A stretch of 64,000 nucleotides of DNA. It comes from a phage. Position 1 is the stretch's first letter; each line of letters begins with the position of its first letter. A model generated the notes under the pieces. That model made no database searches, was not told the DNA's origin, and worked only from the letters and a program-made list of their open reading frames with translations. The translations under genes and the position numbers were made by a program. The DNA lies in sequence record PX068456.1; one strand, written 5' to 3'. Below, one piece after another: positions 29,446-29,530 of this stretch.

Positions 29446-29530
29446 TGGCGATGGATCAAGGATTTGAACCTTGCTAGAACTTTCGTTCACGGATTAACAG
29501 TCCGTCGCCCAACCACTAGGCCAATCCATC
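29446..29530 (-). tRNA. atypical type II tRNA with anticodon GTT (Asn codons)
   Basis: Perfect acceptor GATGGAT/ATCCATC, discriminator G, Asn-like anticodon arm ACGGA-CTGTTAA-TCCGT, but 3-bp D-stem and 15-nt variable-arm hairpin GAAC-GAAA-GTTC. Confidence 0.5.

Follow-up and report, generated by a model that had tools for sequence, protein, structure and literature searches.

A tRNA-Asn(GUU) with a long variable arm in the tRNA array of a phi92-like phage, and its recurrence across phage groups

Long variable arms of bacterial tRNAs are, by textbook account, restricted to the species for Ser, Leu, Tyr and Sec, and seryl-tRNA synthetase (SerRS) grips its tRNA chiefly by this arm. In Escherichia coli, tRNA-Asn identity is carried by G34, U35, U36 and G73 (Li, Pelka and Schulman 1993, via PMC9976931). 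Long arms combined with an anticodon outside the Ser/Leu/Tyr set are found in the allo-tRNAs, which occur in unusual genetic contexts, have 8/4 or 9/3 domains and keep Ser (or Ala) identity whatever the anticodon (Mukai et al. 2017; reviewed in PMC7609411). A further related group is formed by phage tRNAs that escape cleavage by host defence systems, namely T5 tRNA-Lys, tRNA-Thr and tRNA-Asn versus the nuclease AriB of PARIS, and T5 tRNA-Tyr versus retron-Eco7 PtuAB, for which tRNA-Tyr is the target (PMC11555353); these tRNAs carry substitutions in the anticodon stem-loop or the D-loop (PMC12409363, PMC10264068). Here we describe an 85-nt tRNA-Asn(GUU) gene on the minus strand of a 64,000-nt stretch of phage DNA (sequence record PX068456.1; hereafter the window), the variable region of which forms an extra hairpin. 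This gene probably encodes a working phage tRNA, reading AAC and AAU as Asn, and belongs to a widespread lineage, restricted to phage arrays, in which an arm has been added.

ARAGORN calls the gene tRNA-Asn(gtt), and the Rfam model RF00005 aligns to it over the full model length with 56.5 bits (gathering threshold, 29; E ~1e-10) and a 12-nt insertion in the variable region. Its minimum-free-energy fold (-29.5 kcal/mol, z = -2.6) is a cloverleaf plus an extra hairpin. An initial annotation of the window had proposed an Asn GUU tRNA with a long variable arm at this place, and ARAGORN, Rfam and the fold agree with it. The perfect acceptor stem that it described, GAUGGAU/AUCCAUC, can be read directly from the sequence as seven Watson-Crick pairs, with the discriminator G73 and an encoded CCA. 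The variable region, GAACGAAAGUUCUAG, is 15 nt long and folds into the hairpin expected there, with a 4-bp stem and a GAAA loop, followed by three unpaired bases. With a variable region of at least 10 nt and a conserved stem-loop, the gene is of the class II (long-arm) type. Only the D stem, originally given as 3 bp, needs a small correction: there are three Watson-Crick pairs and a possible fourth, the U13-G22 wobble, so that Rfam aligns four pairs and ARAGORN draws three.

Like canonical tRNA-Asn of E. coli (asnT/U/V/W), the phage tRNA has GUU, G73 and the same anticodon arm; positions 28-43 are identical in the two genes, in line with the resemblance to bacterial tRNA-Asn that had been noted at first. 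The E. coli reference sequence is itself found at 100% identity, in features annotated as tRNA-Asn, in 5,425 of 5,426 complete E. coli genomes. Many other family members also share U1-A72 and the UCC acceptor end with the canonical tRNA, and some share its D arm. The canonical tRNA differs in its 5-nt variable loop, AUGUC, which corresponds to the 15-nt region with the 4-bp GAAA hairpin in the phage gene, and the phi92 type further departs from it in G1-C72, A2-U71, G9 and a shorter D stem; the phi92 type also has C11-G24. The likeness to class II tRNA-Tyr, tRNA-Ser and tRNA-Leu lies in the long variable arm and, in many members, in a D arm of class II style, whereas the anticodon is GUU and the discriminator is G73 instead of the A73 of Tyr and Leu. 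Because the acceptor and T domains are of the standard 7/5 bp, and not 8/4, 9/3 or 8/5, the gene is a relative neither of the allo-tRNAs nor of tRNA-Sec; unlike the former, it holds a complete Asn identity set.

The window can be assigned to a phi92-like phage of Escherichia coli; identity over the region is 99.4% to Escherichia phage pEC-M2929-1AR.1 and 97-98% to phi92 and other Justusliebigvirus phages. The gene lies within a minus-strand array of 16 ARAGORN-called tRNAs (27836-30712), of which it is the only tRNA-Asn. It is not new in itself, since the phi92 record (anticodon GTT, PHI92_gt008) and dozens of relatives already annotate it as tRNA-Asn and the 85-nt sequence is present at 100% identity in 53 phage records. 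Its architecture, on the other hand, has apparently gone unremarked: no description of a long-arm phage tRNA-Asn was found in the full-text literature searched, a scope that leaves out most subscription-journal papers, including the T5 tRNA sequencing of the 1980s. Two papers that dealt with such tRNAs, by experiment or in concept, pass over the arm, and in an eLife paper on phage tRNAs neither Asn nor the variable arm comes up. Four records labelled as "Campylobacter phage" (MG065639, MG065645, MG065656 and MG065689; ~146 kb) contain a phi92-type tRNA-Asn that is 100% identical; in all likelihood these are phi92-like coliphages, and their host label is open to question.

Comparison with the arrays of related phages, which the initial annotation had put forward, revealed that the long-arm tRNA-Asn recurs in many phage groups. 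BLAST searches with two family members, the window copy and a T5-like copy, matched 155 and 698 phage records from Demerecviridae, Stephanstirmvirinae, Seunavirus, Straboviridae, Marfavirus and Phikzvirus. In this way, long tRNA-Asn(GUU) genes of 82-88 nt were found in Phapecoctavirus, in Klebsiella-infecting Stephanstirmvirinae, in Seunavirus PVP-SE1, in many Demerecviridae (SP15, Lindwurm, Bas33, Stubb and PSTCR5 among them), in the T4-like Karamvirus, Jiaodavirus and Roskildevirus, in Marfavirus, in Pseudomonas Phikzvirus and in a 381-kb E. coli jumbo phage. IMG/VR and species genomes were searched with a pattern in which the anticodon arm and the T loop were fixed and separated by a long spacer. 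This pattern matched 58 IMG/VR loci, 56 of which lie within an ARAGORN tRNA-Asn of 82-88 nt and 46 of which have at least five tRNAs. An earlier pattern with a GAAA loop and a fixed 4-bp stem had given eight IMG/VR matches, none overlapping an ARAGORN tRNA, and these were discarded as chance hits. Among 185,579 bacterial and archaeal species (one genome each), only 11 matches were obtained: three are 90-nt copies within arrays of 31-35 tRNAs in Micromonospora/Verrucosispora, several are on array-bearing metagenome-assembled contigs, one is a tRNA-Asn of ordinary type that contains an internal duplication, and three have no overlapping tRNA call. The phage gene has no match in any of the 5,426 E. 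coli genomes. The long form is thus nearly absent outside arrays. A short-spacer pattern matched at least 120 IMG/VR loci, with 44 arrays among the matches listed, and by these counts long and short tRNA-Asn are of comparable frequency within phage arrays, among the matches listed. The design, first described as unusual, is so relative to cellular tRNAs but is common among phage tRNA arrays.

Several variants stand beside these copies. The tRNA-Asn(GUU) genes of the Verrucosispora and Micromonospora chromosomes (L087, L088 and L090), 90 nt in length and located in the 31-35-tRNA arrays, have a UCC...GGA acceptor and an extra arm of 6 bp plus one unpaired base, a Ser-like geometry. The tRNA-Asn of T5 (L097 6953-7030; NC_005859 33952-34029) is a 78-nt class I tRNA with a UUGUUAA loop and U-U and G-A mismatches in the anticodon stem, whereas its relatives SP15 (L017), Lindwurm (L006) and Bas33 (L022) have long-arm tRNA-Asn genes of 83-86 nt with canonical stems; the short and long forms look like two alternative alleles within one genus. 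For the tRNA body (acceptor, D and T arms), nearest-neighbour similarity gives a mixed picture of an origin that may be single or multiple: a short tRNA-Asn is nearest for 24 of the 66 long copies, and tRNA-Ser(GCU) is nearest for the phi92 and Phapecoctavirus types. The extra arm is not confined to Asn, since long variable-arm hairpins are also present in array tRNAs for Trp (L032, L047, L076), Glu (L039, L053, L091), Ile-UAU (L035, L046, L069, L078, L091), Thr (L049), Lys (L091) and Pro (L075).

To assess the helices, a covariance model was built from eight copies and 45 distinct family members were aligned. Standard pairs occupy 98.6% of the cells of this alignment, as compared with 68% after shuffling and 34-45% when the pairing partners are shifted by 1-3 columns. 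In the extra helix, all four pairs have changes on both sides, with 94.7% of cells paired; one of them, for example, is UA in 20, AU in 13, GC in 9 and CG in 2 sequences. The extra helix was also predicted independently by RNAalifold, and compensatory changes occur in every helix across families. Of 64 copies, 31 have GAAA as the loop of the extra arm and several have another GNRA, with UAU, UUAG and others also occurring. This covariation across 45 distinct homologues places the extra helix beyond chance, and shows that both the cloverleaf and the extra helix exist and are maintained by selection. The near-invariance of the anticodon arm is to be read with more reserve, as it is partly a sampling effect: the metagenomic and genome copies were retrieved by a pattern in which this arm was fixed.

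Asparagine acceptance is the best-supported reading of the identity elements, as far as sequence features can indicate it. The Asn identity set is complete in the window gene, and GUU and G73 are invariant in all 66 long copies. The U1-A72 pair is found in 37/66 long and 84/98 short tRNA-Asn genes and is practically missing from the tRNAs for Ser, Tyr and Leu at the same loci. Two of the long copies (L047 and L076) combine the D arm GUUCAUCCGGUAGAAC with the anticodon arm of E. coli tRNA-Asn, the hairpin being the sole addition. Pseudomonas and actinomycete hosts make Asn-tRNA by the indirect route. The U1-A72 pair is an amidotransferase determinant (PMC9976931), and its presence in long copies of Pseudomonas phages and actinomycete arrays is a minor point consistent with Asn identity. 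A tyrosine tRNA would have A73 and GUA, of which A73 is found in 52/53 of the Tyr tRNAs of the same loci, and the window gene has G73 and GUU. Host asparaginyl-tRNA synthetase (AsnRS) would then charge the long-arm tRNA with asparagine, and the phage would be supplied with Asn decoding independent of host tRNA-Asn.

As to the arm itself, a short hairpin (3-4 bp, usually with a GNRA loop) replaces the usual 5-nt variable loop and gives the tRNA a class II shape. Because it emerges beside the anticodon stem's 3′ strand, this arm could be a steric antideterminant against tRNA-cleaving nucleases such as PARIS AriB, and could let the phage tRNA-Asn keep a host-identical anticodon arm. Such a shield against host defence nucleases is the most speculative part of our proposal and is put forward tentatively. 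AriB targets the tRNA-Asn(GUU) of E. coli, which it cuts between positions 40 and 41; it contacts D-loop bases 16-17 in a published AlphaFold 3 model, and a change of U39 abolishes cleavage (PMC12409363). The primary AriB targets are tRNA-Lys and tRNA-Thr(UGU) (PMC12409363), and the window gene lies beside tRNA-Lys, tRNA-Tyr and tRNA-Thr. The phage tRNA-Lys(UUU), which also has an A27-A43 mismatch, reads C39 U40 C41 and the phage tRNA-Thr(UGU) reads G39 C40 A41; since both differ around the AriB cleavage point from the U39 C40 A41 of their E. coli counterparts, they are candidate nuclease-escape variants. Phage tRNA-Asn(GUU), with U39 C40 C41, is unchanged from E. coli U36AAUC/C41 (PMC12409363). 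Thus, the window gene resembles the described escape tRNAs in being a phage copy of a nuclease-targeted tRNA, and differs from them in combining a host-identical anticodon arm with an added arm in place of substitutions. A shielding arm would explain both this host-like anticodon arm and the occurrence of the design in phage arrays and not in cells. A broader form of the idea is that phage arrays evolved class-II-shaped tRNA-Asn (sporadically also Trp, Glu, Ile, Thr and Lys) with the arm as a structural antideterminant against immune nucleases that engage the face made of anticodon stem, variable region and D-loop, synthetase and ribosome recognition being left intact; this we consider rather doubtful.

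Several points weigh against the shield, the case for which is one of geometry. Asn is only a secondary AriB target (PMC12409363). The T5 tRNA-Asn of the PARIS rescue experiments is the 78-nt class I tRNA with the mutated anticodon stem, so that these experiments do not bear on the long-arm design; for the same reason, the T5 rescue and an amber-suppressor note in the T5 record were dropped as support for it. Bas33, which carries a long-arm tRNA-Asn, needed only T5 tRNA-Lys for rescue; however, T4 and T7, which are without tRNA-Asn, did not need T5 tRNA-Asn either (PMC12409363). An equally live alternative to the shield is a structural, processing or inherited-feature role of the arm, especially because long arms also occur in other tRNA species of the arrays. 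The tRNA would again accept Asn, and the arm would stabilize folding, aid the processing of rapidly made polycistronic array tRNAs that are without host variable-loop modifications, or be a neutral inheritance through exchange of array segments. Short GNRA-capped hairpins are generic stabilizers, and the sporadic long arms of Trp, Glu, Ile(UAU), Thr, Lys and Pro tRNAs have no common link to a nuclease. Besides, the gene belongs to a closely packed Lys-Tyr-Asn cluster, in which the spacers are of 5 nt and 7 nt, and short-arm tRNA-Asn with the same anticodon arm is about as common in arrays, among the matches listed. A neutral feature, however, would not retain covarying pairs across very distant phage families, and this explanation leaves the preference for Asn and the near-absence from cellular genomes unaccounted for; we regard it as possible, with its chances well short of even.

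The initial annotation had left two alternatives, an Asn tRNA with an inserted arm and a tRNA charged with serine. The former fits the data, and the latter is disfavoured by the acceptor stem and by the geometry of the arm. On the serine alternative, SerRS would charge the tRNA through the long arm and G73, and Ser would be inserted at Asn codons, either as deliberate mistranslation or in competition with AsnRS. That a long arm with G73 makes up the main SerRS identity set is, however, an oversimplification: E. coli SerRS recognizes a characteristic tRNA-Ser tertiary structure, reading the acceptor stem and the orientation of the arm as well, and G1-C72 and G2-C71 are invariant among E. coli tRNA-Ser (PMC9976931). 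The tRNA-Ser genes of the same phage loci have G1-C72 in 90/98, G2-C71 in 93/98 and A3-U70 in 85/98 cases, whereas the window gene has G1-C72 followed by A2-U71 and U3-A70, so that the GGA/UCC signature of tRNA-Ser is missing. Hardly any of the long tRNA-Asn genes bears this signature; A3-U70 is found in only 2/66, and 21/66 have C2-G71, which is listed as an antideterminant against SerRS (PMC9976931). The arms differ too. In long tRNA-Asn, the arm has 3-4 bp in 57/64 copies, followed by 3-4 unpaired 3′ bases in 51/64, and the window gene, with 4 bp and three unpaired bases, conforms to this; the arm of tRNA-Ser is mostly of 5-8 bp, followed by zero or one unpaired base in 47/57. The geometry of long tRNA-Asn is that of tRNA-Tyr of the same phages, with 0-1 unpaired 5′ base, 3-4 bp, a tetraloop and three unpaired 3′ bases. 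Furthermore, GUU and G73, which SerRS does not need jointly, are invariant in all 66 copies, U1-A72 is kept in many of them, and proteome-wide replacement of Asn by Ser would carry a cost that is hard to square with the gene's conservation in hundreds of virulent phages.

Some observations nevertheless weigh on the side of serine and against a simple asparagine identity. Long arm, G73, G9 and C11-G24 are all present in the gene, the anticodon is ignored by SerRS (PMC9976931), and the allo-tRNAs are a precedent for Ser-accepting tRNAs with non-Ser anticodons (PMC7609411). Outside Asn, the family model scores highest on the phage's own tRNA-Ser(GCU) (62.7 bits), and a single substitution converts GCU to GUU. 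This tRNA-Ser and the phi92-type body share 5/7 acceptor positions, U8 G9, G73 and a similar T loop, and it also has a 15-nt variable region with a GAAA loop. Himeno et al. reportedly obtained serine acceptance in vitro in 1990 from a tRNA-Tyr in which the arm had been lengthened by one pair and G9 and G73 introduced, and low-level serylation of the long-arm tRNA-Asn is therefore conceivable. AsnRS, moreover, is a class II synthetase that approaches the tRNA from the variable-loop side, and the extra arm could for this reason hinder its binding. On balance, the serine reading appears improbable.

It is still harder to credit a non-decoding, tRNA-shaped decoy that titrates host tRNA nucleases or other tRNA-binding factors. 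Overexpressed viral tRNAs have been raised as possible competitive inhibitors of AriB (PMC12409363), and the anticodon arm is identical to that of the host target, but conservation extends, as it does in working tRNAs, to the full acceptor stem, G73, the encoded CCA and the T and anticodon loops, and an intact Asn identity set in the sole tRNA-Asn of the array would be needless for a decoy. A decaying pseudogene or chance tRNA-like fold, which aberrant neighbours in the array (the odd T loop of tRNA-Phe and the pseudogene flag of tRNA-Ser(UGA) in the phi92 record) might bring to mind, is ruled out by the compensatory changes in every helix across families, and is also at odds with the Rfam score and with the identical copies in 53 phage records.

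Coordinates of the tRNA-Asn(GUU) gene, its parts and its nearest neighbours in the window
Feature	Position	Strand	Evidence
Whole tRNA-Asn(GUU) gene, 85 nt, encoded CCA	29446..29530	-	ARAGORN; Rfam 56.5 bits; phi92 annotation PHI92_gt008
Acceptor 5′ strand GAUGGAU (G1-C72, A2-U71, U3-A70)	29524..29530	-	Sequence; 7/7 pairs covary in family
D arm GCC(U)-AGUGGUU-(G)GGC, preceded by U8 G9	29507..29521	-	ARAGORN, Rfam; 3/3 D-stem pairs covary
Anticodon arm ACGGA-CUGUUAA-UCCGU	29489..29505	-	Sequence; positions 28-43 as in E. coli tRNA-Asn
Anticodon GUU, predicted to read AAC and AAU	29496..29498	-	ARAGORN, anticodon at position 33
Extra variable-arm hairpin GAAC-GAAA-GUUC	29477..29488	-	Minimum-free-energy fold; covariation; RNAalifold
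Three unpaired bases UAG between extra arm and T stem	29474..29476	-	ARAGORN drawing
T arm CAAGG-UUCAAAU-CCUUG	29457..29473	-	Rfam, fold, covariation
Acceptor 3′ strand AUCCAUC, G73 (29449) and CCA (29446-29448)	29446..29456	-	Sequence
tRNA-Lys(UUU), upstream; 5-nt spacer in Lys-Tyr-Asn cluster (spacers 5 and 7 nt)	29630..29705	-	ARAGORN
tRNA-Tyr(GUA), upstream, tightly packed with Lys and Asn genes	29538..29624	-	ARAGORN
tRNA-Thr(UGU), downstream, 79 nt past the tRNA-Asn gene	29292..29366	-	ARAGORN

No decisive promoter or terminator signal emerged from a scan around the tRNA-Asn gene. The remainder of the array contains further irregular tRNA genes. An unannotated tRNA-like gene at 30261-30339 (minus strand) scores 40 bits with the Rfam tRNA model and is missed by ARAGORN. 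It has a 7-bp acceptor, A73, CCA and a normal T arm, a 7-nt linker in place of the D arm, an anticodon arm CCUGA-CUUCUAA-UCAGG that gives UCU (Arg), and a variable-region hairpin CCGA-GUAA-UUGG. This gene is preceded by a promoter-like TTGACA-17-TATAGT, and is conserved at full length, unannotated, in 240 phage records including Felixounavirus. Between it and tRNA-Leu(UAA), at ~30400-30520 on the minus strand, lies another tRNA-like sequence that is called by neither ARAGORN nor Rfam, with an acceptor GCCUAGU/ACUAGGC, a T arm UAUGG-UUCGAUU-CCAUA, an anticodon-arm-like GAGGC-CAUCAAA-GCCUG, and a variable region of ~39 nt with the hairpin GUUAGAC-CGCUUU-GUCUAAC. Aberrant array members are located at 28478-28552, 30105-30194 and 28152-28227, all on the minus strand. 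The tRNA-Phe(GAA) of the array has a non-canonical T loop, GGAUCGUUACC, and the tRNA-Ser(UGA) has its best score, below threshold, as tRNA-Sec; both are flagged as pseudogenes in the phi92 record. Of the three CAU tRNAs, one is odd in its D arm. At 27920-27980 (minus strand), just upstream of tRNA-Ile, Rfam gives a weak tRNA match (22.9 bits, below gathering) that may mark a tRNA remnant.

A covarying long-arm tRNA-Asn in hundreds of phages raises the question of how AsnRS and SerRS sort its mixed identity features, and a second one of why phages, almost exclusively, retain it. In genome annotation, some pipelines may treat such genes as pseudogenes or report an isotype conflict. If the arm does act as a shield, a fifth long-arm tRNA species would be added to bacterial translation, and phages would have a new route in their conflict with the host, namely escape from tRNA-targeting immunity by a change of tRNA shape and not by mutation of the anticodon loop. 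Such protection would also be relevant to therapeutic phages of the phi92, T5 and T4-like groups.

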